Assembly: GCA_965230935.1 (NCBI GenBank)
Contig: OZ246400.1
Location: 758,359 to 822,358, forward strand
From: an uncultured Gammaproteobacteria bacterium
GTDB taxonomy: Bacteria > Patescibacteriota > Patescibacteriia > Magasanikbacterales > JBBTQS01
Length of the DNA stretch: 64,000 nt
Reading direction: 5' to 3'
Positions 14,000-54,173 of the stretch are shown piece after piece (positions within the stretch are counted from its first letter, which is position 1; each line of letters starts with the position of its first letter). Below the pieces are notes generated by a model, which saw nothing but the letters and a program-made list of their open reading frames with translations, was not told where the DNA came from and made no database searches. Both the position numbers and the translations under genes were made by a program.

Positions 14000-14102
14000 A
14001 GGGATTATGATACCATCATGGTATCAAAGATTATGGTATCTGAGTAGGGAGTGATAGAGAAGAAAAAATCCCAGTTCTGGGATTTTTTCTACCCTCCTCT
14101 TT

Positions 14103-14148
14103 TAGAGCGGCAAACCGGGTTCGAACCGGCGACCTCATCCTTGGCAAG
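14103..14148 (-). repeat. Distal 46-nt direct repeat of the tRNA-Gly 3' half (att site), with the probable ancestral tRNA terminator hairpin next to it
   Basis: TAGAGCGGCAAACCGGGTTCGAACCGGCGACCTCATCCTTGGCAAG matches 45 of 46 positions of tRNA-Gly from the anticodon loop to the CCA end (19751-19796). The flanking hairpin AAAATCCCAG-TTC-TGGGATTTT is at 14070-14092. Confidence 0.85.
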
Positions 14149-14307
14149 TATTCCTAAAAGACAGGAGGCACCCGGCAGGCAACGGAGCGACCGTTGTGCG
14201 GGGTTGATTAGTACAAGAAGATTAGCATTAAGAAATTTACGCTGTCAAATTAATGGAATTCAAAACACCCAGCCGGTTGGCCGAGTGTCTCGGTTGTTGT
14301 TGAATTG

Positions 14308-16557: not shown

Positions 16558-16634
16558 ATCTCAGGCGAATGTCTGAGCAAGACCGGAAGCCCCAAGTGGG
16601 CACGGAGTAGGAGGTGATTGACGTCCTAAAGATA

Positions 16635-16691
16635 CCTATGGCGACATAGGTAAGGACACAAAATCATAGCATAATTTAGCCAATATGTCAA
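16635..16691 (-). promoter_or_regulatory. Minus-strand promoter TTGACA-N17-TATGAT for the helicase gene, with the palindrome ACCTATG-GCGA-CATAGGT at the predicted start region (candidate operator)
   Basis: Read on the minus strand: TTGACA (16691-16686), a 17-nt spacer, then TATGAT (16668-16663). The 7-bp arm palindrome at 16635-16652 lies 10-27 nt downstream of the -10 element. The motif TTTAGCCAA occurs twice upstream. Confidence 0.55.
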
Positions 16692-16921
16692 GTATAAATG
16701 ATCATTAGGGATGTGTACATTGGCATGGTCTAACCAATTTAGCCAAATAATGGGTAGCCAGCGACCTCACCCCTGGAAAAGATGTGTGGTAAAAAAGTGA
16801 AAGATGATGTGCCAAATCACAAGATCGTTGATTGAACACGATTTTCGTTAAATTTTTTTTGCCTAAAACAAAAGAAAAAACCCCTGTTCAGGGATTCCTT
16901 CTTCCTCCTCCTCTGGAGCGG

Positions 16922-16967
16922 CAAACCGGGTTCGAACCGGCGACCTCATCCTTGGCAAGCGTCCCGA
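16922..16967 (-). repeat. Second 46-nt direct repeat of the tRNA-Gly 3' half (internal att site between elements A and B)
   Basis: TGGAGCGGCAAACCGGGTTCGAACCGGCGACCTCATCCTTGGCAAG matches tRNA-Gly positions 32-76 exactly. The adjacent roughly 70 nt (16968-17035) resemble the 14149-14215 sequence and include a CAACGG-N5-CCGTTG hairpin. Confidence 0.9.
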
Positions 16968-17314
16968 AAAGAGAGGAGGGAACTTTGCAAGCAACGGCAG
17001 AGCCGTTGTGCAGGGTTGATTAGTTTCTCCATTCTACCAAGACGAGGCTGTTTCCGTCAACTCACCGGAATGATTATATAAAATCTGCTGTCGAACTACA
17101 AGACGACCCCAAAGGGTCGTCTTGTTTGTGTTCAACTGCCACCGCAGGGCTGTGGATAAGCCATGCATCTCGCGGTACGTCTCAAAACCAACGAGTTGCT
17201 CTATGCTAATGGCAGGCCGATGGTCCTGCCACCCCCTGGCTGCGACGACTGGCTTTGCGGAACCCATCATCTACACGAAAGGAGGTGACCCACGACTGTA
17301 CAGCATTCGGCTGA

Positions 17315-17638
17315 ATGCTGTCAAATAACCCTATGAAATCACAAATGAATCCGGTCGGTCGGCCGCTTGTGTTGCGCGTGCGCGGGCTGCGTACCTGTCG
17401 TCTTGGCGATGCCATGACTCAGCGTCAGCTCGCCGACCTTGCAGGCATCACGCTTAAGCGCCTTCAGCGTCTTGAGACCATGCGCGTAATGCCACATGAG
17501 TTGCAGGAGCTTCACGCGCTTGCCCTCGCGTTGCAGGTGCCGATGGAGCAGCTGTTCCACCCGCAGTGGGGCGAAGACCACCGAACCATCATCGAGGACA
17601 GGCGGTCGGTCTTGGCTGCAGGTCGTCAGGCCGCGTGA
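17315..17638 (+). CDS. XRE-family helix-turn-helix transcriptional regulator (Cro/CI-like); the true start may be an internal Met
   Basis: HTH segment MTQRQLADLAGITLKRLQRLE; small size; located within integrated element B. Confidence 0.55.
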   Translation: MLSNNPMKSQMNPVGRPLVLRVRGLRTCRLGDAMTQRQLADLAGITLKRLQRLETMRVMPHELQELHALALALQVPMEQLFHPQWGEDHRTIIEDRRSVLAAGRQAA

Positions 17639-17815
17639 CGCTGGTGGCGCCGGTTGGGCGAGAACGCCCTTGAGGGTTCAGTTTCTTTGTATCGTCGTCT
17701 CATGCTGTACTTTCCAGTTGGCGAGACCCTGCTGGCCCTATCCGCCATAGATTCGTTAGAAGAAATCAGCGAGACCCGCGGCGAACGCCGATACAAGGCG
17801 TAGGCTTGACAAAGT

Positions 17816-17844
17816 ACATAAAATGTGTTATGCTGCTCCAAACA
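17816..17844 (+). promoter_or_regulatory. Near-consensus sigma70 promoter TTGACA-N17-TATGCT inside element B, driving an apparently noncoding stretch
   Basis: TTGACA 17816-17821, a 17-nt spacer, TATGCT 17839-17844. It forms an AT-rich patch inside GC-rich DNA. Confidence 0.55.
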
Positions 17845-18298
17845 CACTCCTCCATCCACGGCAAAAGTGGCCGAGAATCCGCCAAACTGCGCGCCAACCG
17901 AGCGGTCAGAACGCTGGAAACTGTGCTCTCGACATGAGATGAACGAGGACGTCACCGGGGTGACCCATGTGCGCAGCATCGCTGCTCACGCGGGTCGTCC
18001 TGGACGAGGGGTGAGACTCGGCTGAGTCCCTGACGGTGTCCTCGGCTTATGTCCGCTCCGAACGTTCCTGTCCTACCAGGACGCGCCCAGGGCGACCTCC
18101 ACTCAACGGCTCTGACTGTCCAACCAGTCGGAGTCGTCTTTTGTTTTGGTCAAAACCGGGGCAGAGCATGGACTGCCAGCCCATGTCATTGTGATTCTTG
18201 TGTTGTGGGGTCGCGCAAGAAGAAACCGCGCCCCCGCCCAGTCCCAAGGGTAATGACCACCCATGAGAAGGACGGGGACGCGGTCCGCGAGTCTCAGC

Positions 18299-18718
18299 CT
18301 ACTTGTGTGGGAGCACTCCCTTGAGAGCCTCCACCGGGAGCAGGTTCTCGACTTCTCGTCGTGCGAGTAGGTAGAACCGGTTGCCGAGTTCCTTTTGCAG
18401 TCGTTTCTTGCGTTCGGCCTTCGCCTCTTCCTCGTCGCGGTCCATCACGACGAATGCGCGCGCACAAAGCCGCTTCACGGCAATACGCGCGGCATCACTA
18501 ACGTGGGCGTCGTCGAAGGACCAGTGCTCGACGTTCGCGCCGGCGTATTCCACGAAGGAGTAGTGCACGTCCTCGACCAAGCGTGGGGCGTCAGCGTGCG
18601 CCTGCTCGTACATGCGCAAGTACTGCCGTAGGTACTGTCGGTCCGTGACACCTTCGACCCAAATGGTGGCGCTGGAAAGGTAGACGGACGTGTTGCTGCC
18701 GACGTCAATTAATTTCAA
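18299..18718 (-). CDS. Standalone TOPRIM-like domain protein (OLD-family / DUF4435-like C-terminal nuclease module), probably a remnant
   Basis: Motifs IWVEGVTDRQYL and VVMDRDEE (DxD) with the C-terminal ENLLPVEAL match the Toprim core of OLD/AriB-like nucleases. At 139 aa it is too short for a complete protein of this family, and no ATPase partner ORF is adjacent. Confidence 0.45.
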   Translation of the reverse strand: MKLIDVGSNTSVYLSSATIWVEGVTDRQYLRQYLRMYEQAHADAPRLVEDVHYSFVEYAGANVEHWSFDDAHVSDAARIAVKRLCARAFVVMDRDEEEAKAERKKRLQKELGNRFYLLARREVENLLPVEALKGVLPHK

Positions 18719-18953
18719 GTAGCGCGCCTATGCCCTACGCAAAACCACAACTCAGCGAAGCACTCCTGCGCTTCTTCTACGGCGACATGCGCTTCGACAA
18801 ACTCACCATCGTGAAGATGACCGGCTGGGACCTCAAGGAGCTCGATGCTCTGCGCAGGCAAGCTGACATTCGCAAAGGGGAGCCAACGGCAGGGCCTCTT
18901 GAGTACGAACACCTGGACCAGCTCGCCACGCGAATCAGCGCCGCGCCACATTA

Positions 18954-19565
18954 CTACGGCAATCGTCGTGCTCCTTGGGTGCGCAGGAAATGGCACGAGA
19001 AGCTGCGCGCCATGGCGCTGGGCACCAGCCGGTCTTTGTCACCCTTCCCGTGACGAACCAGGATGGTGCGCTCCTCCAGGTTGACGTCGGCGCAGTCCAG
19101 CGCCAGCAGCTCACTACGTCGCAGGCCGGCGAAGATGAACAAGGAGAGCACGGCATGCGCGCGGTGCCCGGCGTAGTGGTACTTGTAGAGCTTGCGTACC
19201 ACTGAGAGCACCTGTCGTGCCTGCTGCGCTGTGAGGCTCTTGGGCAGGCTCTTGGGCAAACGCGGCTTCTCCAGGGCGCGCGCATAGTTCTTCCGCAGGA
19301 GCTTCTGCTTGATGCACCAGTCGAAAAAGGCAATCAGGCTCCTGCGGTACGTGAGGTAGGTGCGCACCTTCCAGGCGCCGGAGCTGCGGCCAAGCAGGAA
19401 GAAGGAGCGGACGTTCTTGTCCGTAATCTCGTGCAGGTACGTAGTGCCAGCGCACTTGGCATACAGGCGCACGCCTTGGCGGTAGCGCGTGATGGTGGCG
19501 CCTGAGAGCGCACGGAAGTTGATGGCCTCGTCGCAGAACGTACGAAGCGCCTGGTCAATGGTCAT
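18954..19565 (-). CDS. Tyrosine recombinase/integrase, C-terminally truncated and probably inactive
   Basis: The N-terminal SAM-like core-binding region and catalytic box I (FAGLRRSELLAL) are present, as is the beta-hairpin with catalytic Lys (RHGKGDKDRLVPS). The ORF then ends after about 30 residues in a double stop (TAG TAA), with no HxxR-H/W-Y catalytic region in any frame downstream. It lies adjacent to the tRNA-Gly 3' end. Confidence 0.7.
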   Translation of the reverse strand: MTIDQALRTFCDEAINFRALSGATITRYRQGVRLYAKCAGTTYLHEITDKNVRSFFLLGRSSGAWKVRTYLTYRRSLIAFFDWCIKQKLLRKNYARALEKPRLPKSLPKSLTAQQARQVLSVVRKLYKYHYAGHRAHAVLSLFIFAGLRRSELLALDCADVNLEERTILVRHGKGDKDRLVPSAMARSFSCHFLRTQGARRLP

Positions 19566-19750
19566 AGGGGTTGGAGTTAGTCCTGCGCAAAGCTCTTAGC
19601 TTGCGTCAGCTCCTCCATGCTAGCGGCATCATCTGCGTACCGGAAGTGCCGAGAGTGCCTTTGGGTGTCCACAGCGAGAACACAAAAGGCAGGGTTCCTT
19701 TGGGAATCCTGCCTAGATTTAGCGCAAAAATGGGCGCATGAATCTGTGTT

Positions 19751-19826
19751 TGGAGCGGCAAACCGGGTTCGAACCGGCGACCTCATCCTTGGCAAGGATG
19801 CGCTCTACCAACTGAGCTATTGCCGC
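19751..19826 (-). tRNA. tRNA-Gly, anticodon GCC, with encoded CCA
   Basis: The reverse complement reads GCGGCAATAGCTCAGTTGGTAGAGCGCATCCTTGCCAAGGATGAGGTCGCCGGTTCGAACCCGGTTTGCCGCTCCA, a canonical 76-nt cloverleaf with anticodon loop TTGCCAA. Confidence 0.95.
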
Positions 19827-19876
19827 GGACCGCTAGGCGCCCCTATCATAGCAAAGGCGCCCAATCGTATCAAGCG

Positions 19877-20734
19877 TTATTCAATTACAATCTCTTTTGT
19901 TTCGACCAGTGGTTTTCCAGAGAGTTCGTCCTCAAGCTCACCTTCTTGTTCGTATACTTCTGCGGTAATGGTCTGCGCGTCTTCCCATGTAATCGTTACT
20001 CGGCTTTGTGGATACCCAACACCGGCATTAAACGTCTGGCTTGTTGGGAGTGAAAGGACAGTTGCGATACTGTTTTCAATCGCATCAAACACCCATAGTG
20101 TGGTTGCGCTTCCTGCACCATCACCTTCCTGGTCAGTATTTACAAATACACTGTGGCGTTTGTCTGGTGCATGAGAAACTTCTAGATTGATTGCTCCGTC
20201 AGTGGTAATGATCTCAGTCAAATCTTCCACTTGGCTCATCGTATTGGTCGTTGCATCAAACACCCAGAGATCGAGTGGTGAAGTTTTTTCATCTGCGCCA
20301 CTTCCAGTAAAAACACGCCAAAATGCAATTTTGCCTTCAGTAGAAAATACAGCGTGTTCAAGATATGCCACATCGTCTTCTTCCTCTTGTGCTAACTCAC
20401 GCACACTCTCCACAAGCACTTCTTCAACACCGGCTTGGGTGTCAGTACGCAATACTTGTGTATCGTCGTCGGTGCGTTCTACTTTATAGATAAACTTAGA
20501 GAATTGTGACAGTGCTTCTTTTTGCTCGGCACTTTCTTCTTTAAGATTGGTCAGCTCACTTTCCAATTGGCTAACTTTGTTTTGCAACAGTTGTGATGAT
20601 TCTTCAAGATCATCTTGATTGCGCTCGAGTCCGCTTTTGGTATAAAAGCTTGCGCCAAATACCACGATTAACACCAAAACAATAAATCCAATAATCATTC
20701 CTGATGAATTGGATGGTTCCTTTTTGCTTGCCAT
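19877..20734 (-). CDS. Hypothetical membrane-anchored protein with an N-terminal TM helix, a coiled-coil segment and an acidic C-terminal half
   Basis: 285-aa ORF starting MASKKEPSNSSGMIIGFIVLVLIVVFGA, followed by the heptad-like segment LEESSQLLQNKVSQLESELTNLKEES. Confidence 0.5.
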   Translation of the reverse strand: MASKKEPSNSSGMIIGFIVLVLIVVFGASFYTKSGLERNQDDLEESSQLLQNKVSQLESELTNLKEESAEQKEALSQFSKFIYKVERTDDDTQVLRTDTQAGVEEVLVESVRELAQEEEDDVAYLEHAVFSTEGKIAFWRVFTGSGADEKTSPLDLWVFDATTNTMSQVEDLTEIITTDGAINLEVSHAPDKRHSVFVNTDQEGDGAGSATTLWVFDAIENSIATVLSLPTSQTFNAGVGYPQSRVTITWEDAQTITAEVYEQEGELEDELSGKPLVETKEIVIE

Positions 20735-20737
20735 AGA

Positions 20738-21418
20738 TTATACAAGATGATTAATGATGACTCCTGGGCCCATGGTGCTGCTCAAGGTGACTTTTTTGAT
20801 AAATGTTCCTTTTGCCTTGGCTGGTTTTGATTTGCTAATCGCTTCGATGATCGTGGTGATGTTTTCGCCCAGTTTATCTTTACCAAAAGAAATTTTACCA
20901 ACACCCAGATGAATGTTTGCCGTATCGTCATTTTTAAACGCCACTTTTCCTTTTTTCAACTCTTCAATTGCTTTGGCAAAGTCGGGTGTAACGGTATCGT
21001 TTTTTGGGTTTGGCATCAGCCCACGGGTGCCAAGGGTTTTTGCAATCGGTGCGAGCTTTGGCATCATCTCCGGAACTGCTACCGCCACATCAAAGTCAGT
21101 TTTTTGAGATTTTTTAATATCTTCGATAAGCTCCTCAGCTCCGGCGATGTCAGCTCCGGCAGCTTGCGCGTCTTTTATTTTATTTTCCGGAACAAAACAA
21201 ACCACGCGTGTGGTTTTTCCGGTTCCGTGTGGCAACGTTGCGGTTCCGCGAACCTGTTGCTCAGTTTTTTTCGGGTCAATGCCCAGGCGAAAATGAATCT
21301 CAACTGATTCATCAAATTTGGCATTACTCATGCTCATCAACAGATCGATTCCCTCGGCAATACTGTAGGTACGATCTTTTTTTACTTGTGCTTGGAGGGC
21401 ACGATGGCGTTTTCCCAT
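20738..21418 (-). CDS. rplA: 50S ribosomal protein L1
   Basis: Conserved L1 core (QVRGTATLPHGTGKTTRVVCF, RGLMPNPK). The start is assigned to the ATG at 21418 (MGKRHRAL...), because the longer ORF begins with TTG at 21454. Confidence 0.9.
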   Translation of the reverse strand: MGKRHRALQAQVKKDRTYSIAEGIDLLMSMSNAKFDESVEIHFRLGIDPKKTEQQVRGTATLPHGTGKTTRVVCFVPENKIKDAQAAGADIAGAEELIEDIKKSQKTDFDVAVAVPEMMPKLAPIAKTLGTRGLMPNPKNDTVTPDFAKAIEELKKGKVAFKNDDTANIHLGVGKISFGKDKLGENITTIIEAISKSKPAKAKGTFIKKVTLSSTMGPGVIINHLV

Positions 21419-21584
21419 ATATGTGTGATTACGTGGTGCAAATGTCTGCGTCAACAGACTCCCACATGATTAATGTGGTTGTATGGTAGGGGAAAATGGC
21501 AAAATTGTCAAGGGAAGTAATATCGGGAAAAAGCATACAACAGACCTGGTGGCCTGCTGCGCGTTGTATGTTGGTTGTTGGTGA

Positions 21585-21971
21585 TCAGCCGCCACCGGTG
21601 CCGGCGCCAGTCCGTGGGACGGACCGCATCACCGAGGCGCCCTCGCGAGCCGTTTCCTCGCCGTCTGGCGAATCTTGTTCAGCTGCGTCAGCGCGCTGCA
21701 ATGCCTCGCGAAGGAGGGTAACGGCGCTTTTGGCAAGGCCAGAGGTTTGGCACAGCCTCTGCAGACGCGTGTCCAGTCGCAGAATCGCCCAGACCAGCTC
21801 CCGCTGCTCACGATCGAGCGGAGCTCGGCTCAAGATGATCGCCGCGACTTCGCACGCGCGATCACTGTGCCCATGGCCTGCGAGCGCTTGGGCAAGCCCG
21901 CGGTCGTGCTCGTGGTCTCCGCTAAGTGCGGCGAGCATGAGCTCGAAGAGTGGTTTTTTCGGTGGTGGCAC
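21585..21971 (-). CDS. Hypothetical protein encoded on a GC-rich ~0.5-kb insertion between rplA and rplK
   Basis: The 21.5-22.0 kb segment is about 65% GC, and this 128-aa helical ORF is in the same orientation as the operon. The overlapping plus-strand ORF looks spurious. Coding status is uncertain. Confidence 0.3.
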   Translation of the reverse strand: MPPPKKPLFELMLAALSGDHEHDRGLAQALAGHGHSDRACEVAAIILSRAPLDREQRELVWAILRLDTRLQRLCQTSGLAKSAVTLLREALQRADAAEQDSPDGEETAREGASVMRSVPRTGAGTGGG

Positions 21972-22057
21972 CTATCATTACCCCCGTTGTTTTGGTTGCC
22001 GCATGAAAGTAACGTGGCTTGAAGGTAGCACGGTATGCGGCATTCGTCAATATCAAA

Positions 22058-45387: not shown

Positions 45388-47175
45388 ATGGATATTAGAA
45401 ACATTGCAATTATTGCACACGTTGATCATGGCAAGACCAGTTTAACCGATGCACTGATGCGGCAAACCGGGATGATGAGCGACGAGGATGCTGGCATGGA
45501 TTCAAACGATCTTGAGAAAGAGCGTGGGATTACGATTTACTCAAAAAATACTTCGGTAATCTACAACAATACCAAGATTAACATTGTGGACACTCCAGGC
45601 CATGCTGATTTTGGTTCTGAAGTCGAACGCGTGTTGCGGTCGATTGATTCAGTGTTGTTGGTGGTAGATGCCCAAGAAGGCCCAATGCCGCAAACCAAGT
45701 TTGTACTGAAAAAGTCTTTGCAGCTCGGTCTTAAGCCAATTGTCGTGCTCAACAAAATCGATAAACCAGCTGCGCGACCGGATTGGGCACACGATCAGGT
45801 GTTGGAATTGTTTATGGATCTTGGTGCTAATGACGAACAACTTGATTTTGTGACGGTATATGCGATTGCGAAGAATGGAACCGCAGTGTTGCATCTTGAT
45901 GATGAGCATACTGATCTTAGTCCACTGCTCGAGACTATCCTCGATCATGTGGCGCCAGCGCCAAGTGATACAACAACACCATTTGCGTTTCAGCCGTTTA
46001 ATCTTGCCTATGACAACTATTTAGGAAGAATGGGTATTGGACGTGTGTATCAAGGGGTGGTTAGTATTGGGAAACCCGTGGTAGTAAAAAAACCAGACGG
46101 CACAAGTACAAAAGGAACGATTTCAAAATTATTTACATTCGAGGGAGTACGCCGCGTTGAGGTATCACAGATCAGCGCAGGAGACATCGCAATGATTGCC
46201 GGTATTCCAGAAATTTATATTGGAGACACGGTGTGTGTCGATGCGAAACAAGACCCACTTCCCGCGATTACGGTTGATGAACCAACCATCTCGTTACAGT
46301 TTATGGTAAACAGTTCACCGTTTGCCGGACGTGATGGAAAGTATGTTACTAGTCGTCAGATCAAAGAACGACTTGAAAAAGAGTTGGAGGTGAATGTCGG
46401 GATTCATGTTGATTTTTCTATGCCAGATCGGTTTGCTGTTTTAGGGCGAGGTGAGTTGCATGTTGCGGTCTTGCTCGAGAACATGCGCCGCGAAGGATAT
46501 GAGGTACAAGTGTCCCAACCACAGGTCATTGTTAAAGAAGTTGATGGAGTTAAGCACGAACCCTTTGAGCTCCTCACTATTGATGCGCCTGAGGAATGTG
46601 TCGGAACCGTGATCGAAAAGTTGGCCAAACGAAAAGGACAGATGATTAGTATGAATCCAGAGCAATCGCATATCCGTTTGCAATTTGAAATTCCTACCCG
46701 TGGGTTACTTGGGTATCGGAACGAGTTTGTGGTGGATACGCGCGGTGAGGGAATTTTAAGCAGCGAGCAGCTCGGCTTTCGGCCATATGCTGGAGAGATT
46801 CAAAAGCGTGCAGTGGGTTCGATGATCTCTGGTGAGACCGGAAAAGTGTTGGGTTACTCTTTGGCGAATTTGCAAGAGCGGGGAGCGCTCTATATCGGAC
46901 CTAATATTGATGTGTATGAAGGCATGGTGATTGGGAATACTGCAAAAGGAATGGATATGACTGTGAATCCAATCAAAGGAAAGCATCTTACTAACATGCG
47001 TGCCTCTGGTGCTGATGCCGCACTTAATTTAACGCCGCCAGTACCGGTGACGCTAGAGCGCGGTTTGGAGTTAATGACTGATGATGAATATTTAGAAGTT
47101 ACGCCAACGCATGTTCGATTGCGAAAACACCATCTGACAGAATCGGATCGGGTGCGAGCGGGAAGGAAGAAATAA
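45388..47175 (+). CDS. typA: Translational GTPase TypA/BipA
   Basis: Starts [17 protein letters not shown] (G1), has DTPGHADF (G3) and NKID (G4), and an EF-G-like domain arrangement. Confidence 0.9.
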
Positions 47176-47183
47176 TTTCACTT

Positions 47184-47495
47184 TTACTCAACATCAATTT
47201 TTATCCCGCCAAACCATTTTGCAAATAGATTATAAAAGGGAGCGCCAACAAGTCCTACTACACATCCAAAAACAGCAAAAATAATTGGCATCCCGATAAG
47301 TGCTCCAAATGCGAGTACGGTACCGGAGCTTAGCCCAGGAGTTTCTTGAGATGTTATCCAGCCAATAGTTACCAGTGTGTCAATTACCAATCCTCCAAAT
47401 GAATACAATATTCCAAGAACCAAGCCGATAAGCGCTCCAAATGCTGTGTGCATTTTTACAAAGGGGAGAATTCCTATTTTTTTAATGGTTTTCAT
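47184..47495 (-). CDS. Small hypothetical membrane protein (cassette-like)
   Basis: 103 aa with 3 TM helices; no recognised family. Confidence 0.45.
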   Translation of the reverse strand: MKTIKKIGILPFVKMHTAFGALIGLVLGILYSFGGLVIDTLVTIGWITSQETPGLSSGTVLAFGALIGMPIIFAVFGCVVGLVGAPFYNLFAKWFGGIKIDVE

Positions 47496-47502
47496 TTAGG
47501 GT

Positions 47503-47787
47503 TTATTTATTTTTGCGTTTCATGTAGATGAAACTGGAAATGACATACACAACGATTGCCATAATGAGATATACCCATGTATCAATATAATTTCCTGGGC
47601 ACTCAGTTATTGGTGGCTTTACGTTATTGAGATACCCTTCATAGCTTAATCCAGTACAGGAAAAAGTGGTTTTGAGTATCATGAGTCCAAAAAGAGAAAG
47701 AGCAGTGATGCTTACATTTATCCAATTTGGTTTTAGCCCATAATTTTTTGCCGGGCTACTTTGCTTATGATTCCTTTGGTTTTTCAT
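47503..47787 (-). CDS. Small hypothetical membrane protein (cassette-like)
   Basis: 94 aa with 2 TM helices. Confidence 0.45.
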   Translation of the reverse strand: MKNQRNHKQSSPAKNYGLKPNWINVSITALSLFGLMILKTTFSCTGLSYEGYLNNVKPPITECPGNYIDTWVYLIMAIVVYVISSFIYMKRKNK

Positions 47788-48220
47788 AGATGTATTTCAC
47801 TTTGCCAAAATCACGCTCGTATTGTTCATCACTAACTTTTTGAACACCAGGTAATTTTTCTGTTGCTCTGATTGATGCGGTATTATCAAGGCTGATTGTC
47901 ATGGTAATAAACGGAAGATCAAGTTCATCCATCAACTGTTGTTTGAACTTGGCGGCAAGTCCTTGTCCTCGATATTTATTATCTACTACCGTGTGAGTTA
48001 CATTTTTTTCATCAGCGGTGTCATACACACCGACGATTCCTAGTTTTTCTCCTTTACTGCCGTAGAGAGTAAAGTATCGTTGGTTCGCGCAGTTTTCTTG
48101 ACCAAGAGCAATCCAGCCACCTTCTCCTTCAAGTTCTTGAAAATATTGCATATCAAAATCACCGAGACGTTGAATCTCAGCAGGCTCTTGTTCGTGGCGC
48201 CTTGTTTCTGGTGTGGTCAT
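47765..48220 (-). CDS. GNAT-family N-acetyltransferase-like protein
   Basis: Motif-A-like RGQGLAAKF and a beta/alpha pattern of about 150 aa. Confidence 0.45.
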   Translation of the reverse strand: MTTPETRRHEQEPAEIQRLGDFDMQYFQELEGEGGWIALGQENCANQRYFTLYGSKGEKLGIVGVYDTADEKNVTHTVVDNKYRGQGLAAKFKQQLMDELDLPFITMTISLDNTASIRATEKLPGVQKVSDEQYERDFGKVKYIYEKPKES

Positions 48221-48235
48221 AACTATTTACATTTT

Positions 48236-48589
48236 TTACTCTACTTCGTCTTTCATCTGAGTTAATAGATCGGCAATTTTTTCAGAAATTTGTTCTAGTT
48301 CTTCAAATTTTTTTATAGCTTCTTCCTTGTTATCAGAATTGTGTAAAGAAATGATTTCATTTGTCAGCTCATGTAATTGTTGATGATTGTTTTTTAGATC
48401 ACCTAATTCTTTGAGGTCTTTACATTCATTTTCTGCCTCTCCTTCAATCCATTGTCCTAAATTACACGCATGATGAGATTTAAATTTTTCTTCCGGTATG
48501 TTGGACGTTCCACTTTTTATATAAGGCCTAAGTTGGATCATCCAATTTCTGTGGTTTACGATGGCAAGATTAAAGTTGAGAGTACTCAT
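48236..48589 (-). CDS. CZB (chemoreceptor zinc-binding) domain protein
   Basis: The HxxCxLGxW signature (HHACNLGQWIEG), preceded by a conserved His (HRNWM). Confidence 0.6.
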   Translation of the reverse strand: MSTLNFNLAIVNHRNWMIQLRPYIKSGTSNIPEEKFKSHHACNLGQWIEGEAENECKDLKELGDLKNNHQQLHELTNEIISLHNSDNKEEAIKKFEELEQISEKIADLLTQMKDEVE

Positions 48590-48670
48590 AGTAGATAATT
48601 AAATTGTTAATACCATGGTTTTTTTATTCTATTATTAACTCAATGGATTGGCAAGAGTTAAGCGAAAAAT

Positions 48671-48773
48671 GTATTTCAGCTAACGTTTGCGTGTATGCGA
48701 TGTTGCGACCGAAGGGAGCAATATGGGTGAGCTCTCTCGAAAGAGAGCGAACCTCATACACGCTGTTAGCTGA
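48671..48773 (+). repeat. attC-like imperfect palindrome / structured element, copy 1
   Basis: R box TCAGCTAAC (48676-48684) pairs with GTTAGCTGA (48765-48773). L stems TGCGTGTATG / CATACACGC. The internal hairpin is GCTCTC-TCGAAA-GAGAGC. Shared motifs with copy 2 are GTATTTCAGCTAACGTT, TGGGTGA, GAACC and GTTA. It is followed by a terminator at 48792-48818. Confidence 0.55.
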
Positions 48774-48791
48774 TGTACACTTTTTCTTTTA

Positions 48792-48818
48792 ATCCCGACC
48801 CAGTCGGGATCGTTTTTC
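48792..48818 (+). terminator. Intrinsic terminator downstream of element copy 1
   Basis: ATCCCGAC-CCAG-TCGGGAT then CG and TTTTT. Confidence 0.6.
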
Positions 48819-48904
48819 TATTATAGATCAAATTGATTTTTCATTTGGCGGGGGCGCAAGAGGGAAAATCAAAAAGGGTGAATTGCGCCCCCGCCAACAC
48901 TCAA

Positions 48905-49855
48905 TTATTTCACTTTCCTTTTTCTGTCACGTCTTTTCATGTAACGATCCACAGCTTCTTTGGTTGTAACCCAATCACGACCTTCTTTGTGTGCCTCTAG
49001 TTTGCCTTGTCGTGCCAAAAGATTGAGGTATTTTGCGGAATACGGAGTTTTTTCTGCCACATCAGCAAGTTTCATGAATTTTTCTCGTTTTTTATCTGTC
49101 GGAGTAAGTGTTTTAAGATACAAGTCTAGTGAACGCTCAACAGATTGAGCAATAAAGCGAGCAAATGGTTCAAGATTTTTCTTGTCGGCTTGATCAAGCG
49201 CTCGGTAATATTTTTTTCTGTCATTTTTCAAGACAATGGACAAAGGAAAACCAGCCTGCATTAAAATGAGGTTCATCAAAAGTCGAGAGGTGCGTCCATT
49301 ACCGTCAAAAAATGGATGAATGAAAACAAGTTTGTGGTGTGTGAGCGTTGCAAGCTCAACAACATGTAGTTTTTTTCGTTTGGCAGAAAACCACTTAACA
49401 AGGTCATGCATGTGTTGCGACACTTCAAGTGCGTCAGGTGGTGTATGATCAGCGCCGCCAATGATCACGTTTGAGTTTCTATATCTTCCGGCCCACTCTT
49501 TGTCGGTTTCCTGCACAATGAGCATATGGAGTTGTTTGATCAAATTTTCGGAGAGCGTATGGTGTTTGCCTTTTTCAATCAAATCATACAAATACTCAAG
49601 AGCCTGGTAATGATCTTTTGCTTCCAAATGATCTTTGAGTGGCTTTCCTTTCACGGTTAACCCCTCGTTAATAACAAGAAACGTCTCTTTGAGTGTTAAA
49701 GAGTTACCTTCAATGGCATTGGAGTTGTACGTCATTTCAATACGAAGCTGGTCTCTGAGTTTTTCAACCGCTGATTTCGGAAGTGGGCGGAGTGAATTGA
49801 GACGTTTTAGTTTGTCGTTGAGACGATTTTGTAGGGATTGATTTAAGTGAGACAT
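48905..49855 (-). CDS. Fic/Doc (Fido) family protein with an intramolecular inhibitory motif
   Basis: Fic motif HPFFDGNGRTSR and an upstream S-x-x-x-E-G inhibitory motif (SNAIEGN). 316 aa. Confidence 0.85.
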   Translation of the reverse strand: MSHLNQSLQNRLNDKLKRLNSLRPLPKSAVEKLRDQLRIEMTYNSNAIEGNSLTLKETFLVINEGLTVKGKPLKDHLEAKDHYQALEYLYDLIEKGKHHTLSENLIKQLHMLIVQETDKEWAGRYRNSNVIIGGADHTPPDALEVSQHMHDLVKWFSAKRKKLHVVELATLTHHKLVFIHPFFDGNGRTSRLLMNLILMQAGFPLSIVLKNDRKKYYRALDQADKKNLEPFARFIAQSVERSLDLYLKTLTPTDKKREKFMKLADVAEKTPYSAKYLNLLARQGKLEAHKEGRDWVTTKEAVDRYMKRRDRKRKVK

Positions 49856-50114
49856 ATTTAATATGGTTTAGATAATTTATTACACTATACCATATTAAGG
49901 ATTTTATCTAAAATGTAGGATGTGTATAAAAATGAATGAAGGCCGACGGTACTTTTCGATTGCTCGAATTTCCCGCCGACCTTGTATTGACCTCCTTTTC
50001 GGTCATCTCACTCCTTCTTTTTGCTTTTGAGGTTGCTTCGAATGGTCCACACCTTCTCGACGATAGTGAAGACCAATAGGATGCATACGACTGTGAGCAT
50101 GATGTCGATTTTGC

Positions 50115-50471
50115 TCATAATCTGCTCCCCTTATTATTCTCGATCTTTGCAAGCATCAGCAGGTGTGGTCCGACGAAGACACCGAGACCCATACAGATGA
50201 CGCTCACAATGACCAACATGGCGCGCGACTGGGTTAGTGGTTGCCTTGTCACGACAAGCACAACAACTAATCCCGCTAGACCCAGGATTATACACGCCCA
50301 GCCTGCCACCTTGTTTTTCTTTACCTTCTGGCTAATGCTGACCAGCATGCTTGCACTTATGATGGCGAGACCCAGCATAATCAAGGTAAAGCTCCACATG
50401 TCCGCGAACGGGGATACGGCAAAGCCGATGATGGAAAGGATAAGTCCACCAGTTGTGGCAGTGCGTAGCAT
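50115..50471 (-). CDS. Small hypothetical membrane protein
   Basis: 118 aa with 4 TM helices. Confidence 0.45.
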   Translation of the reverse strand: MLRTATTGGLILSIIGFAVSPFADMWSFTLIMLGLAIISASMLVSISQKVKKNKVAGWACIILGLAGLVVVLVVTRQPLTQSRAMLVIVSVICMGLGVFVGPHLLMLAKIENNKGSRL

Positions 50472-50764
50472 GTCATTTCCTCCTACTTCCCGCGATCACC
50501 CCAACCATTGCCGGACTTCCCAAGCATCCAAACGAGCAGGAGGCAAATGGGAAGACACAACACGAGGGTGAGAATGATGATAAAGATCCCTATTTTGTTC
50601 TCCTTTGTTTCCGTCTTTACTGAATTGTAAAGAACAATGAAATATAACGTGGCAATCAAATACTGTCAATGATATTTACTAAATAAAGTATATTATTTAG
50701 CTAAATTGACAATAAAATAAATGTATGCTACAATACCTGTAAATAATTTCTACAACAAAATACT

Positions 50765-51493
50765 ATGCTTAACGAACTCATCAACAATTTTTATTTCAAT
50801 GAAAAAGAGGCCAAGGTCTATTTGGCTGCGTTGGAATTGGGACGCAGTCGAGTAAGCAGAATTGCGAAAAAAGCAGGGCTTAACAGAGTTACAGCTTATG
50901 AGGTGTTAAAACGACTATCTCAAATGGGCATTGCACAAAGTGCTATTTACGGCGGTGTGCAGACATTTATTGTCGTACCACCAGAGACGTTGGTGGAAAA
51001 ACAGGAGAGTCGGTTATCGGTTGCTAAAAAGATATTACCGGAACTTTCTTTGCTTACTGCTTCCAAAAAAAATAAGCCTTCTATTTTATTTTACGAGGGT
51101 ACGGAAGGCATACGGAGTATTTATGAAGATACCCTTGCTTGCAAAGATAAACTGATTTTGAATATTACTCACCCACAAAATCTATTGCAGACTATTGGAG
51201 AGGATTTTTTTTATCAATATGTGAAGAAGCGAACACGTAAGCACATTGCCGTGCAAGTGCTTTTGCCTGATACAAAAGAAAACAAAAAATACAAAAAAGA
51301 AGTCACAACTGCTAAACGACAAATAAAATTCTTTGACTCCACTAAATATCCTTTACCAAACGAAATTTTGATCTATGACAATAAGGTGGCTCTGCTTTCT
51401 TTCTCGTCGCTAGTTGGCGTGGTCGTGGAAGATAGGGATATTGCTCAGTCGGTAAAATCTCTTTGGCAAATGGTTTGGGACAGTATAGATTAA
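50765..51493 (+). CDS. TrmB-like winged-HTH transcriptional regulator
   Basis: The N-terminal region EKEAKVYLAALELGRSRVSRIAKKAGLNRVTAYEVLKRL matches the TrmB HTH; it also has a C-terminal effector-like domain. Confidence 0.6.
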   Translation: MLNELINNFYFNEKEAKVYLAALELGRSRVSRIAKKAGLNRVTAYEVLKRLSQMGIAQSAIYGGVQTFIVVPPETLVEKQESRLSVAKKILPELSLLTASKKNKPSILFYEGTEGIRSIYEDTLACKDKLILNITHPQNLLQTIGEDFFYQYVKKRTRKHIAVQVLLPDTKENKKYKKEVTTAKRQIKFFDSTKYPLPNEILIYDNKVALLSFSSLVGVVVEDRDIAQSVKSLWQMVWDSID

Positions 51494-51654
51494 AAATAAA
51501 AATTGTCACACCTGAGCATACTGGTGTGACTCCATGTTTTTTCCCTCATCAAAAAAACGTCCCGCCGAATATACGGCGGGACACCTATTTTAAATGAAAA
51601 ATCAATTTGGTCATTATAGAAAAATGGGCGACGTCAGGAGCCAAAAGAAAAAGC

Positions 51655-51762
51655 GTATTTCAGCTAACGTTAGGGATATACGAAGTTTTTCTGTAGCGTA
51701 GCGGAAGAAAAATTTGGGTGAAGCCCGAGCCGAGGGCTGAACCGTATATCCCTTGTTATGTG
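51655..51762 (+). repeat. attC-like imperfect palindrome / structured element, copy 2
   Basis: Same 17-nt leader GTATTTCAGCTAACGTT. L stems AGGGATATACG / CGTATATCCCT (compensatory relative to copy 1). The internal hairpin AGCCC-GAGCCGA-GGGCT is flanked by TGGGTGA and GAACC, with a closing GTTA. Confidence 0.55.
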
Positions 51763-51835
51763 CCCCGACGACTGAAAGGAGGAGAGCGCAGCGTGGCGCG
51801 AACGATAGTGAGCAAGTCCGTCGTAGCCCGCCGCC

Positions 51836-52483
51836 CTATTCGCAATTATTATGCAATTTCCACATTTCTGGGTCATGTCCTTCAGGGATATTCTCGCATG
51901 GATCTCCAGAAGTGTATCCTCTCAACTCATTATACTTCTCTACTTGCTGGGGCGTAAGAATTTCAACCATAGACAAGTGATATTTCAAATGAACAACTCT
52001 CAACTGACCGTATAAATCAGCACTTTCTTTAACTTTCTCTTGAAGAAATGCGTTTGTGATTGTTTTACCTGTAAATGCGTCATCAATTCCTTTTTCAATA
52101 TCTATAATTTTTTCGCCAAGCTCAATGGCTTCAGAACGCATTTCTTCATAAAGTGCTTCAATTTGTTTATGTTGTTCATTTGTCAGTTGAAATTCGCCTG
52201 CATCATACGCATCCAAAACATGACGAGGACCAGGATAGCCATTTAGTTCGGCAGGTTTTGCCATGCCTCCAAACGGAGTTCCAGCCCCAGCAAGTAGTCC
52301 CTCAATATCATCTTGAGAAAGTGCTTTTATACCTCTTGCTTCTTGTCCTGCATAAGGAGAATGTATGGCACTTTCGTCAGAAGTTTGAGAGGTGGTTTTA
52401 TCTTGTTGCGAGAATATCCCTATAACGATAGCTACTAGGATAACTCCAATAATAATTGCGAATTTTTTATCAAACTTTTTCAT
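51836..52483 (-). CDS. LTXXQ-motif (Spy/CpxP/ZraP-like) periplasmic protein
   Basis: Signal/TM N-terminus and two LTxxQ motifs (LTNEQHKQIEALYEEM, LTPQQVEKYNEL). Confidence 0.55.
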   Translation of the reverse strand: MKKFDKKFAIIIGVILVAIVIGIFSQQDKTTSQTSDESAIHSPYAGQEARGIKALSQDDIEGLLAGAGTPFGGMAKPAELNGYPGPRHVLDAYDAGEFQLTNEQHKQIEALYEEMRSEAIELGEKIIDIEKGIDDAFTGKTITNAFLQEKVKESADLYGQLRVVHLKYHLSMVEILTPQQVEKYNELRGYTSGDPCENIPEGHDPEMWKLHNNCE

Positions 52484-52631
52484 AATACTTAGTTAAATTA
52501 TAAATGATTTAAAAGTTTTCCGCTAAAGGCAGGCGAAGGCGGATTGCACATAACTGGTTTCAATCCGCACTTTCTTGCTGATAATACTCGAATCTTGCGT
52601 AGTATGCGAACTATCTGTACAATACCATAAT

Positions 52632-53444
52632 ATGCAAAATTATCTACAACAGGCACAAACAGAACTTAGGCTTCGAAATTATAGTCCAAAAACAATCAAA
52701 AGCTATCTCCGTTGCCTTACGCAGTATTTGGACACTATCAAAATTGATCCAACAAAAGCCACACGAGATGACATCGCCCGATTTCTTCTTGCCAAACAGC
52801 ACATCGGTCTTGCGCCATCAAGCATCAATCAATATCTTGGCGCAATTAAATTTTTTTATACGGAGATTTTACATCAGCCGCTCCATCTTACAATCAAGTT
52901 TGCAAAAAGACCACACCGACTCCCGGTAGTACTTTCTTCCACAGAAATCAAACGACTCATCAACGCTATCGCTAACAGTAAGCACCGTCTACTTATCTCA
53001 CTTGCCTATGGTGCAGGCTTGCGAGTGAGCGAGGTTGTGCGTTTGCGCGTGCAAGACATCTCCCTTGACGAGCTCACTATTCATATTAAACAGGCGAAAG
53101 GGCGTAAAGATCGTATTACGCTTTTCCCGGAAAAGTTACACAACGATTTTTTGATTCTTCTCAAAGAGAGAGAACCAAAAACATATGTATTTCTCTCTCA
53201 AAGAGGAGGGAGACTTACCACGCGCACTGCACAAAAGATTTTTACCAAGGCACTTATCAAAGCAAGCATTACTAAACCAGCCACATTCCATTCCCTTCGT
53301 CACAGTTTTGCAACACATCTTATTGAAAACGGAGTTGATATTCGCTATGTTCAAGAGCTGCTCGGGCATAGTAATATTCGAACCACACAACAGTATACTC
53401 AGGTCACTCGTCCTGCACTTAAAAATATCAAAAGCCCCCTATAA
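52632..53444 (+). CDS. Short tyrosine site-specific recombinase (XerC/D-like integrase, 271 aa)
   Basis: Catalytic residues in the expected spacing: AGLRVSEV (box I Arg), KGRKDRIT (Lys) and HSLRHSFATHLIENGVDIRYVQELLGHSNIRTTQQYTQV (HxxR, H, Y). The start is assigned to the ATG at 52632 (MQNYLQQAQ). Confidence 0.85.
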   Translation: MQNYLQQAQTELRLRNYSPKTIKSYLRCLTQYLDTIKIDPTKATRDDIARFLLAKQHIGLAPSSINQYLGAIKFFYTEILHQPLHLTIKFAKRPHRLPVVLSSTEIKRLINAIANSKHRLLISLAYGAGLRVSEVVRLRVQDISLDELTIHIKQAKGRKDRITLFPEKLHNDFLILLKEREPKTYVFLSQRGGRLTTRTAQKIFTKALIKASITKPATFHSLRHSFATHLIENGVDIRYVQELLGHSNIRTTQQYTQVTRPALKNIKSPL

Positions 53445-53507
53445 TCCCCAGTTGCCACACACCCTCTCCAATGCTAAACTCAATTTAGCAAAATAGTCCA
53501 AAAATAT

Positions 53508-54173
53508 ATGGTGCTCAACAAAACAGAACTTCTCTCCTATATAAAGGAAGGAAAACTCACGTTTTCACCCTCTCTCGATGCGTTTCAAATGCAGCCAAAC
53601 TCCGTTGATCTGCGTCTGGGCTGGAGCTTTTATGTTCCCAAAGGCGAAGAGATGACCGCACAAGGTCGTGTAGGTGTTTCAGCAGATTATCTGGATTATG
53701 AATCTCCAAAAGAATATTACAAATTGATCAAACTCAAACCAGGGCAAGTGTTTGAGATTCAACCAAAAGAGTTTGTGATTATCTCCACACTCGAGAAGGT
53801 TACCTTTGCTGATGGTTCTATTGCCGCCACACTCTACCCACGTAGCTCAGTGATGCGCCGTGGATTGATTATGGAAGGGGGAGTGGTTGATGCATTTTAC
53901 TCCGGGCACCTCACCATTCCGCTCTTTAACAGTACCACCCATGCGATTAAGCTATTCCCAGGTGAGCGGGTGTGTCAGTTGATGGTTCAGCAACTAAGTT
54001 CGGCATTGGAGAAAGACGGCGCAAACACCCATGGTGTTGCCCAAGCCAAATACATGGATGCAACTCCCTATGGTCTTGAAGCACGTACTGACAGCAAAGA
54101 AGAGATTGACTTTATCAAGGCTGGAAACCTCGACGGACTTAAAGATCAATTCACCATCACCGCTAAAGAGTAA
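53508..54173 (+). CDS. dcd: dCTP deaminase / dUTPase-fold protein
   Basis: N-terminal pattern ...SVDLRLG... typical of Dcd; about 220 aa with the trimeric dUTPase fold. Confidence 0.6.
   Translation: MVLNKTELLSYIKEGKLTFSPSLDAFQMQPNSVDLRLGWSFYVPKGEEMTAQGRVGVSADYLDYESPKEYYKLIKLKPGQVFEIQPKEFVIISTLEKVTFADGSIAATLYPRSSVMRRGLIMEGGVVDAFYSGHLTIPLFNSTTHAIKLFPGERVCQLMVQQLSSALEKDGANTHGVAQAKYMDATPYGLEARTDSKEEIDFIKAGNLDGLKDQFTITAKE

Follow-up and report, generated by a model that had tools for sequence, protein, structure and literature searches.

In the chromosome of an uncultured member of the Patescibacteria (Candidate Phyla Radiation, CPR) we found a region of about 6 kb that probably represents an integron-like array of gene cassettes linked to a Xer-type tyrosine recombinase, in effect an analogue of the integron built on Xer/dif parts, with folded sites that resemble both attC and the attachment site (attP) of the CTX phage. 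We give this reading a probability of roughly two thirds. The region (positions 47180–53444) lies between typA and dcd in a 64,000-nt stretch of contig OZ246400.1, henceforth referred to as the window, to which all positions refer unless another locus is named. An earlier inspection of the bare sequence (the original prediction) had proposed here a cassette array with attC-like sites and a short tyrosine recombinase that was nevertheless not a classical integron. The positive half of this proposal is supported by the arrays in which the sites occur, by their linkage to the recombinase gene (xer) and by a rule of complementarity between the arms of successive sites; the negative half is supported by the lack of the IntI-specific insertion in the recombinase and by a canonical attC model that matches no element. 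Our analysis refines the picture in that each site is a double one of dif-like type and stands nearer to the attP of the CTX phage than to attC. As far as we could find, a Xer-type recombinase acting with a dif-like primary site and a new family of folded sites as an integron-like platform would be new; the full-text literature, of which our coverage was incomplete, yielded nothing on integrons, Xer/dif or such cassette arrays in CPR/Patescibacteria.

A widespread family of folded elements

The window contains exactly two copies of the 17-mer GTATTTCAGCTAACGTT (48671 and 51655, + strand), each at the start of an element, el1 (48671–48776) and el2 (51655–51765). The motifs TGGGTGA, GAACC and a closing GTTA are common to both, so that the repeat and motifs first read by eye were borne out by the window search. 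The two elements share one fold, a three-way junction consisting of an outer stem (P1), a 3-nt bulge, a second stem of 10–11 bp (P2), a hairpin (P3) and then P4, itself made of GGGU/ACC, a GA/GA internal loop and a hairpin. Folding, together with the family-wide covariation described below, confirms that the main helices differ in sequence between el1 and el2 yet stay paired. The outer stem AGCTAAC/GTTAGCT, originally read in both, is complete in el1 only; the 3' arm of el2 is GTTATGTGC. With RNA parameters the folding energies are −52.1 kcal/mol for el1 (z −6.7) and −40.6 kcal/mol for el2 (z −4.8); folded as single-stranded DNA (ssDNA), the + strand reaches −31.0 against −25.5 kcal/mol for the − strand in el1, and −18.4 against −15.9 in el2. 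The + strand thus folds better than the − strand with RNA and DNA parameters alike. Along this strand el1 is divided into a 5' (left) arm GTATTTCAGCTAA (48671–48683), a core holding the three-way junction (48684–48764) and a 3' arm GTTAGCTGA (48765–48773), and el2 correspondingly into a left arm (51655–51667), a core (51668–51754) and a 3' arm (51755–51763).

These elements belong to a widespread family of sequences of about 100 nt. A gapped-pattern scan of metagenome contigs gave 33 loci with some 22 true copies, and a scan of species-representative genomes gave 10 loci with eight true copies, one of them in a metagenome-assembled genome (MAG) of Candidatus Magasanikbacteria. Homologous copies outside the window, at about 30 loci initially, could in this way be brought into a covariation-supported alignment of 50 distinct copies. 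MAFFT alone misaligned the two window copies, and the structural alignment became reliable only after more copies had been added. A covariance model (R1) served for searches of both the window and the other loci; across the loci gathered it gave 55 matches, 50 of them distinct. In the whole 64 kb the full model returned el1 (91.8 bits, E 1e-21), el2 (98.7 bits, E 2e-23) and no further copy, in agreement with the two sites originally counted.

Covariation across the family is strong. An RNAalifold consensus of 20 sequences contained 30 pairs, of which 16, or 19 by a second count, showed compensatory changes. In the 50-copy alignment 94.6% of the cells at paired positions were paired, against 73.4% in shuffles and 30–49% in slid controls, and double-change cells numbered 304 against 94; none of 500 shuffles reached the observed values. 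Two G·U (G·T as DNA) wobbles are near-invariant (48/50 and 45/50 copies), the one in P3 becoming A-U or G-C when it does change, and TAAC...GTTA at the base of the stem is near-invariant as well (46–49 of the 50 copies). From the G·T wobbles and the lower folding energies it follows that the xer strand, i.e. the + strand of the window, is the folded one.

The family matched no RNA family in Rfam. At gathering scores the whole window gave there two tRNAs, located away from the elements, and no match to an element, and over 47000–53600 at E≤10 there were chance terminator-like matches, with no family matching el1 or el2. The elements were also sought among viruses: the exact 17-mer had 10 matches in IMG/VR, all of them chance occurrences inside coding sequence, and of 65 candidate loci found there with a relaxed gapped pattern none was confirmed by the covariance model.

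Several copies depart from the common form. The element at 1366–1466 of locus L036 is chimeric, with an L027-type stem in its 5' half, an L044-type 3' half, an unpaired P2 and 29 nt shared in P4, and is either an assembly chimera or a product of homologous recombination between elements. Truncated second copies, in which the leader is fused to TTGGGTGA...GAACC and the 3' stem, stand 3' of the elements at 5935–6034 in L047 and 1533–1635 in L031; the family therefore includes decayed or partial sites. True copies were also present in MAGs whose record titles label them as Ignavibacteriaceae, Marinimicrobia, Saccharibacteria or 'Gammaproteobacteria' (L048/L049, L051, L055–L058), which reflects either spread across phyla or mislabelled or misbinned contigs.

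Probable cassette arrays, arm complementarity and linkage to xer

The elements form co-oriented arrays, with five copies in L029, four in L044 and three each in L037, L034, L027, L057 and L066. Copies are spaced 0.5–3.5 kb apart, with one element per one to five genes. Of the flanking open reading frames (ORFs), 43 of 50 on the 5' side and 40 of 43 on the 3' side run antisense to the element, and the gap between element and ORF end is often 10–60 nt, or 14–34 nt in tight arrays. Such gaps leave no space for a dedicated promoter and terminator and so weigh against a small-RNA gene. At several array loci the genes between elements are accessory in type, among them restriction-modification systems, GmrSD, HEPN, HepT/MNT, Fic, GNAT and glyoxalase genes, along with MazG, CutA1, RmuC, DUF4145, DUF4268, efflux proteins and many unknowns. 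In a Magasanikbacteria MAG (L050) a Fic gene with 68% nucleotide identity to that of the window stands beside an element in another gene neighbourhood, and a gene common to L029 and L034 has an element behind it at either locus, amid different neighbours.

A cassette signature is found in the arms. As a rule, a 3' arm (9 nt, GTTAnnnnn) is complementary not to the 5' arm (nnnnnTAAC) of its own element but to that of the neighbour in the direction of xer, or to that of the xer-proximal site. Of 31 consecutive pairs from 18 arrays, 18 match the next arm perfectly over 9 nt and 2 the own arm; in pairs whose two arms are not alike, the next one prevails by 24 to 2. When partners were shuffled, the mean was 3.7 perfect matches and the maximum 12 in 100,000 trials (permutation p≤1e-5). 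In the window, the two arms of el2 match each other over just four contiguous nucleotides (TAAC), and its 3' arm is 9/9 complementary to GCACATAAC (52546–52554), which lies 800 bp off beside xer. The 3' arm of el1 fits either 5' arm, that of el2 as well as its own, at 9/9 positions. The left arm of the xer-proximal site pairs with the 3' arm of the first element not only in the window but in L060, L065, L066 and L068. Complementarity to the next arm is the very rule that defines integron cassettes.

According to the arm rule, the crossover falls within TAAC-GTT, after the variable portion of the left arm and ahead of P2. Xer enzymes cleave where arm and central region meet, and by analogy the exchange would take place at TAA/C (after TAA, before C), i.e. 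at 48683/48684 in el1 and 51667/51668 in el2, in which case a circularised cassette would regain a closed P1 of 9–10 bp. The circular junction of cassette 1 (see below), reconstituted on this assumption, folds as ssDNA with −27.1 kcal/mol (z −6.2) against the −18.4 of el2 in the array, 8.7 better. Elements with identical cores and the same 3' tail, but with differing 5' leaders (L019/L044/L055 and L043/L045/L057), agree with a crossover at the 5' edge only. Two cassettes only are delimited in the window. By the arm rule, cassette 1 (51668–52553, 886 bp, − strand) would comprise the el2 core, a purine-rich tail, an LTXXQ-family gene and a 5' arm now joined to the xer-proximal site, and cassette 2 (48684–51667, 2984 bp, − strand) the el1 core, hairpin modules, a Fic gene with a helix-turn-helix (HTH) domain, a membrane ORF, a TrmB-type regulator, a terminator, a leader and the left arm of el2. 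The genes on the flank distal to el1 (CZB, GNAT and membrane proteins, 47184–48589, − strand) are unbounded by a second site and are either old backbone beside the original site or a decayed cassette.

The recombinase gene (52632–53444, + strand) encodes a protein of 270 aa with the Pfam domains Phage_int_SAM_4 and Phage_integrase, an arm-less tyrosine recombinase that is Xer-type rather than IntI by score. It passes the cut-off of the XerA-like NCBIfam profile NF040815 (223.3 bits vs 220) and fails those of the integron integrase TIGR02249 (215 vs 265 bits, split into two stretches) and of PRK15417 (140 vs 435). Aligned to IntI1 it is 37% identical and keeps the catalytic residues (R-K-H-R-H-Y), and two gaps of about 30 and 11 aa stand where IntI1 has its specific insertion (additional domain, patch III), the absence of which had been suspected from the start. 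Homologues of 270 aa and about 60% identity number in the thousands in Patescibacteria, several of them in an operon with ruvC. A 'Cand' subgroup of simple tyrosine recombinases, close to Xer, has been described (bioRxiv 10.1101/542381). The window recombinase corresponds to this 'Cand'/XerA-like subgroup and is a candidate for the enzyme that moves the cassettes.

We examined ten loci with such a Cand-Xer gene (the window, L059, L060, L064, L065, L066, L068, L069, L140 and L141). All seven with readable upstream DNA (the window, L060, L064, L065, L066, L068 and L069) have significant R1 matches upstream of xer and on the xer strand, at a distance of 0.3–6 kb, with divergently oriented accessory genes in between. 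Downstream of xer in these seven genomes there is no significant R1 match; the genes found there are the housekeeping genes ruvC, prfA, tsaE or dcd. The contigs of L059, L140 and L141 end 100–240 nt upstream of xer, as expected of assembly at a repeat. When recombinase homologues were sought near the elements of the 50-odd short loci, only L048/L049 and L051 had one, most of these contigs being too short.

All ten Cand-Xer loci carry, 80–160 nt upstream of the xer start, a form of one conserved site, [T/C]ATAAC T[C/G]GTTT[C/T], usually followed directly by TAT[A/G]CGAA. This dif-like site lies directly beside xer and not elsewhere. In the window this dif-like, attI-like primary site occupies 52541–52561 of the + strand (motif part 52549–52561), and its left arm GGATTGCACATAA (52541–52553) is followed, across a putative crossover at 52553/52554, by CTGGTTTC. 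In 467 kb of loci the motif [TC][AT]TAAC[TG][CG]GTT[TA][TC] is found just upstream of xer alone, bar one stray match. The left arms of the primary sites are close to published dif arms, which include ATTTCGTATAA, GATTCGTATAA and GGTGCGCATAA (PMC2731167), and the site of L064 has the dif architecture with two alike inverted arms (left arm ATGTCGTATAA, central region CTCGTTTC, right arm TATACGAATTG). The 5' half of every element aligns with the primary site along ATTTCA-GCTAA, C-GTT-N5-6 and TATRCGAAGTT. With P2 stacked on P3 as the duplex of the right arm, the sequence conservation of the first base pairs of P3 is also accounted for. The A-rich leader and small hairpin that come before ordinary elements stand before the primary site as well in L060 and L066.

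Between the primary site and the recombinase gene, a promoter is predicted from the sequence at 52595–52623 (TTGCGT-17-TACAAT, + strand), the spacer of which contains a half-site resembling a Xer arm, TATGCGAA (52603–52610, + strand). The half-site TAT[A/G]CGAA occurs at the same place in L059, L060, L064, L065, L066, L068, L140 and L141. It could possibly serve as an operator through which xer regulates its own expression. The xer-proximal accessory region of L068 (6192–6794 and 8100–8480) holds an IS200-type Y1 transposase gene and several TTTTTAGGGGACAGTCCCCTTTT hairpin repeats, and dnaA is located about 6 kb from xer in that locus.

Modules and genes around the elements

The elements are accompanied by further conserved modules. 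Inverted repeats and a terminator scan delimit a block 3' of el1 (48792–48897, + strand) that consists of a small hairpin with a T-run (48792–48815), an AT-rich block (48818–48846) that is an inverted copy of 51592–51619, and a long hairpin (48845–48897) with the loop GAGGGAAAATCAAAAAGGGTGAAT. This block is 75% identical to its counterpart in L041, and the same modules are present in L020, L037, L044, L051 and L060. On the same strand, el2 is preceded by a leader module (51559–51654) made of a bidirectional terminator hairpin (51559–51582), the AT-rich block (51592–51619), a small hairpin (51626–51642) and the A-rich leader AAAAGAAAAAGC (51643–51654); a leader of the architecture ...GGGCGATAGCCC AAAAAAGAAAAGG AATATTT is also found 5' of elements and of the xer-proximal site in other genomes. 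An invertible segment between 85-nt inverted flanks (48765–48848 and 51592–51668) was considered and rejected, these flanks being the standard leader and module sequences that accompany every element.

The hairpin with loop GAGGGGAAnnAAAGGGGTGAAT, the form of which in the window is the long hairpin 3' of el1, is a separate conserved unit that recurs after elements and genes, in L041, L020, L044, L037, L019, L051 and, with two copies, L060 (4960–5070); in Rfam it gave chance microRNA-like matches only. The P3 loop of el2 (51696–51708) reads GTAGCGTAGCGGA, and many loops of module hairpins are variants of GNAGCGNAGCGGA that contain GCGAAGC or GCGNAGC, also in L016, L023, L035, L043 and L060 (9720–9800). 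The oligonucleotide d(GCGAAGC) forms a DNA mini-hairpin of unusual stability, and such loops, if relevant, would speak for DNA as the molecule that folds. Also discarded was a conserved mini-ORF in the GTTTTC...GAAAAC hairpin module, which the hairpin explains and the window lacks.

A purine-rich motif resembling a Shine-Dalgarno (SD) sequence, GAC[C/T]GAA[A/G]GGAG, is found in the P3 loop of el1 (48703–48715) and in the tail of el2 (51768–51790), as well as in the tails of L016, L029, L035 and L044, where a tail of about 40 nt follows GTTATACG (CCCCGACGACTGAAAGGAGGAGAGCG); on the gene-sense strand it resembles an anti-SD sequence. The purine-rich tail after el2 covers 51764–51835. A small ORF that would start there from the SD-like GAAAGGAGG...GTG was dismissed as unconserved in other loci. 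Also on the gene-sense strand, a perfect TATAAT (complement of 51611–51616; region 51587–51614, −) is followed some 30 nt on by a strong terminator (51555–51586), an arrangement that would give a transcript of about 60 nt if the box is used; this box and terminator account for weak Spot42-like and VrrA-like Rfam matches.

Profile searches of the window proteins (Pfam/NCBIfam) confirmed the gene calls of the region and the gene types named in the original prediction, i.e. small membrane proteins, GNAT, CZB, Fic, LTXXQ and the tyrosine recombinase. From the typA side, the stop codon of typA lies 8 nt from the last ORF, and the distal flank contains small membrane proteins (a 103-aa membrane ORF and a 94-aa ORF, within 47184–48589), the GNAT gene (47765–48220) and the CZB gene (48236–48589), all on the − strand. 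Cassette 2 encodes the Fic+HTH protein (48905–49855, −), a small membrane ORF (50115–50471, −) and the TrmB-type regulator (50765–51493, +), and cassette 1 the LTXXQ-family protein (51836–52483, −); beyond the recombinase gene is dcd. A riboswitch or other 5' untranslated region of the CZB operon was ruled out for el1 by a promoter, TTGCCA-17-TAGAAT, that lies between el1 and the CZB gene, and by the folded strand being antisense. Elsewhere in the window, a segment at about 14000–22000 has a G+C content of 0.54–0.57, compared with about 0.45 in the rest, and a GC skew near zero.

Proposed mechanism, rival explanations and known systems

In our best explanation each element consists of two dif-like sites in inverse orientation, some 60 nt from one another, and on the xer strand it folds into a forked hairpin. 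The left binding arm (...ATTTCAnnTAA) has its duplex in P1, the central region is replaced by a small internal loop or bulge that is asymmetric (C-GTT vs T), P2 stacked on P3 is the duplex of the right arm (TATRCGAAGTT), and P4 is the fork. A comparable structure is known from CTX-phage attP, in which two inverted dif-like sites 90 nt apart make a fold of about 150 nt (PMC5357621). The double-stranded dif-like site upstream of xer, with the same left arm, central region and right arm, would act as the primary, attI-like site. The adjacent 'Cand' Xer might bind both arms of the folded strand and cleave at TAA/C, where Xer enzymes cut dif; exchange of one strand with the xer-proximal site would amount to insertion, and exchange with another folded site to excision. 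Replication would then resolve the junction, as it does for attC x attI (PMC4792948) and for CTX-phage attP x dif. On this scheme an excised cassette 1 would carry the circular junction GGATTGCACATAA/CGTTAGGGATATACG, and its loss would leave the empty-site junction GTATTTCAGCTAA/CTGGTTTCAATCC. Activity of the recombinase, use of ssDNA and current mobility are what we infer from the arrangement of sites and genes.

Several points weigh against a Xer-linked cassette array. Thirteen of the 31 arm pairs are imperfect, L064 breaks the rule, and the arms were extracted by hand from printed sequences. The genes of L058 lie on the element strand, and L048 (labelled Ignavibacteriaceae) and L056 (labelled Marinimicrobia) differ in arrangement. 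The window and L060 are without the consensus TATRCGAA right arm directly beside the primary site. The partner site has dif architecture and adjoins xer, and GC skew shows no switch there, so that a role as the dif of dimer resolution at the terminus is not supported in the window. That the adjacent Xer is the acting enzyme is suggested by synteny and site similarity only. A comparison, for four organisms, between samples sharing the same recombinase protein (P0052, P0038, P0004 and that of the window's organism) showed no presence/absence polymorphism of cassettes, gene orders being identical. The arrays may therefore be sedentary or fossil.

The fold itself would suit a structured RNA, either the product of an antisense small RNA gene or a module read through from neighbouring genes (insulator, stabiliser or processing site), and arrays would arise as each horizontally acquired gene brings its copy. 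The very strong covariation, the conserved G·U pairs and the GA/GA (tandem G·A) loops fit RNA too, el1 is followed on its own strand by a hairpin and T-run like those of an intrinsic terminator, and conserved hairpin modules surround the elements. We nevertheless consider an RNA unlikely, as no Rfam family matches at E≤10, the 14–34 nt that separate elements from ORFs in tight arrays are too short for a promoter or terminator, and on the gene-sense strand the two conserved wobbles become C·A mismatches; moreover, an RNA leaves the next-arm rule, the fixed position and orientation relative to xer and the dif-like 5' half unexplained. Chances are similarly slim that the inverted dif-like sites recombine as duplexes, in the manner of pdif modules, and that the hairpin is a by-product of their closeness. 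The central regions of the half-sites are unequal (C-GTT-N vs C-A-N) and could not recombine together as duplexes, the local stems P3 and P4 covary independently of any partner site, right arms vary freely among elements while always matching within one, and a 3' arm matches the arm facing it only after circularisation. What such a model does capture is that each element holds two inverted dif-like sites, hence gene blocks flanked by inverted sites, and that modular gene units bounded by Xer sites are already known (PMC9771954).

It is very improbable that the family is a selfish repeat, of the repetitive extragenic palindrome or interspersed mosaic type (REP/BIME) or the miniature inverted-repeat transposable element type (MITE), spread by a Y1 (HUH) enzyme of the IS200/IS605 group or a RAYT, with the xer region merely tolerating insertion. 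The modular make-up of the family and its truncated and chimeric copies (L047, L031 and L036) would fit such a repeat, the conserved TAAC is reminiscent of the short motifs that Y1/RAYT enzymes target or cleave, and the array of L068 contains a Y1_Tnp gene. That locus is the exception, however: there is no Y1 gene in the window, nor in nine of the ten xer loci. Copies within one genome differ widely in stem sequence and keep the structure, unlike recent transposition products, and a repeat of this kind would not account for the constant orientation and position relative to xer or for a 5' half that matches the xer-proximal site and dif arms.

A classical integron of IntI and attC is the remotest of the alternatives, in spite of inverse core boxes AAC...GTT one position off RYYYAAC/GTTRRRY, a co-oriented array, and a divergent tyrosine recombinase with a SAM_4 N-terminal domain and 37% identity to IntI1. 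It is contradicted by the missing IntI-specific insertion and the scores below the cut-offs of TIGR02249 and PRK15417. To compare the sites directly, we used a proxy attC model (R2) built from nine canonical attC with trimmed loops (aadA7 and 8 of 9 archaeal sites, PMC9668308 Data S9/S10). With a class 1 integron as control, R2 finds the complete attC-aadA7 at 54.8 bits, this control site being also in the training set, and detects none of the elements (0 matches at E≤10, filters off), consistent with the non-classical half of the original prediction. The extrahelical bases typical of attC were looked for in the fold and are not present, nor is there a symmetric spacer, and the three-way junction is conserved in sequence whereas the terminal structure of attC is variable.

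A broader view of the Xer-linked array is that the 'Cand' Xer of CPR serves two purposes, its own dif-like site next to the gene being used also for gene capture in the manner of an integron, a Xer-based 'proto-integron'; this we offer tentatively, with the odds against it. Integrons are the textbook example of gene capture, IntI is thought to derive from Xer-like recombinases (PMC4792948), and the proto-integron could be either an independent invention or a living picture of the transition from Xer to IntI. Cassettes would be inserted as folded single strands, possibly acquired through natural transformation, with no need of the IntI-specific domain, and would pass from one phylum to another. 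If the cassette reading is true, it would provide a mechanism for the turnover of accessory and defence genes in reduced CPR genomes, in which mobile elements are poorly known, and assign a function to the 'Cand' subgroup. It would also supply a natural intermediate linking dif/Xer, the folded attP of CTX type and attC/IntI, with a transition testable in vitro, as well as a new covariance model for cassettes that searches of the IntegronFinder type would probably miss, and it would explain the assembly breaks just upstream of xer in CPR genomes.

Among known systems, the pdif modules of Acinetobacter plasmids likewise consist of accessory genes set between Xer-type sites of alternating orientation, and the host Xer system is presumed to move them. 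Their sites are plain 28-bp XerC/XerD duplex sites on plasmids, unlinked to xer and without evidence of folding or covariation, whereas the context here is chromosomal (typA-dcd) and the sites are covarying hairpins of about 100 nt. XerS is genetically linked to difSL, and some archaea carry a xerA/dif module (PMC5357621). With XerS/difSL, XerH/difH and archaeal xerA/dif the present system shares a single Xer recombinase and a core site with inverted arms adjoining its gene; those systems, in contrast, are known only for resolving chromosome dimers, without folded sites or cassette arrays. The likeness to integrative mobile elements exploiting Xer (IMEX) of CTX type (PMC5357621) extends to the mechanism that we suppose: a forked hairpin, formed by two inverted dif-like sites tens of nucleotides apart, imitates a double-stranded Xer site whose central region is imperfect, a duplex of dif type serves as partner, and successive insertions would build arrays there. 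The elements described here differ in carrying small gene cassettes and not phage genomes, none being found in IMG/VR, and in having a single recombinase with the target beside its gene, a conserved three-way junction as the fork, and CPR hosts.

The integrons, which include sedentary chromosomal and archaeal ones (Ghaly et al. 2022, PMC9668308), share the overall plan. As here, the genes of the co-oriented array are mostly small and accessory and run divergently from the recombinase gene, a simpler primary site adjoins the latter, and each cassette has at its 3' end one structured site of some 60–140 nt whose folded strand is antisense to the genes. AAC/GTT boxes stand at the base of the stem (RYYYAAC...GTTRRRY), and arms such as GTATAAC and ACATAAC occur in validated archaeal attCs as well. 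The crossover of integrons falls at AA/C (G/TT), and the beginning of a cassette pairs with the distal end of the site that the cassette itself carries, as in the arrays described here. The differences lie in the enzyme, which is of Xer type and lacks the insertion with which IntI reads extrahelical bases, and in the site, which has neither extrahelical bases nor the symmetric unpaired central spacer of attC and shows instead a long perfect second stem and a sequence-conserved three-way junction in place of a variable terminal structure. In contrast to those of integrons, the cassettes here carry leader, terminator and promoter-like modules and may hold several genes.

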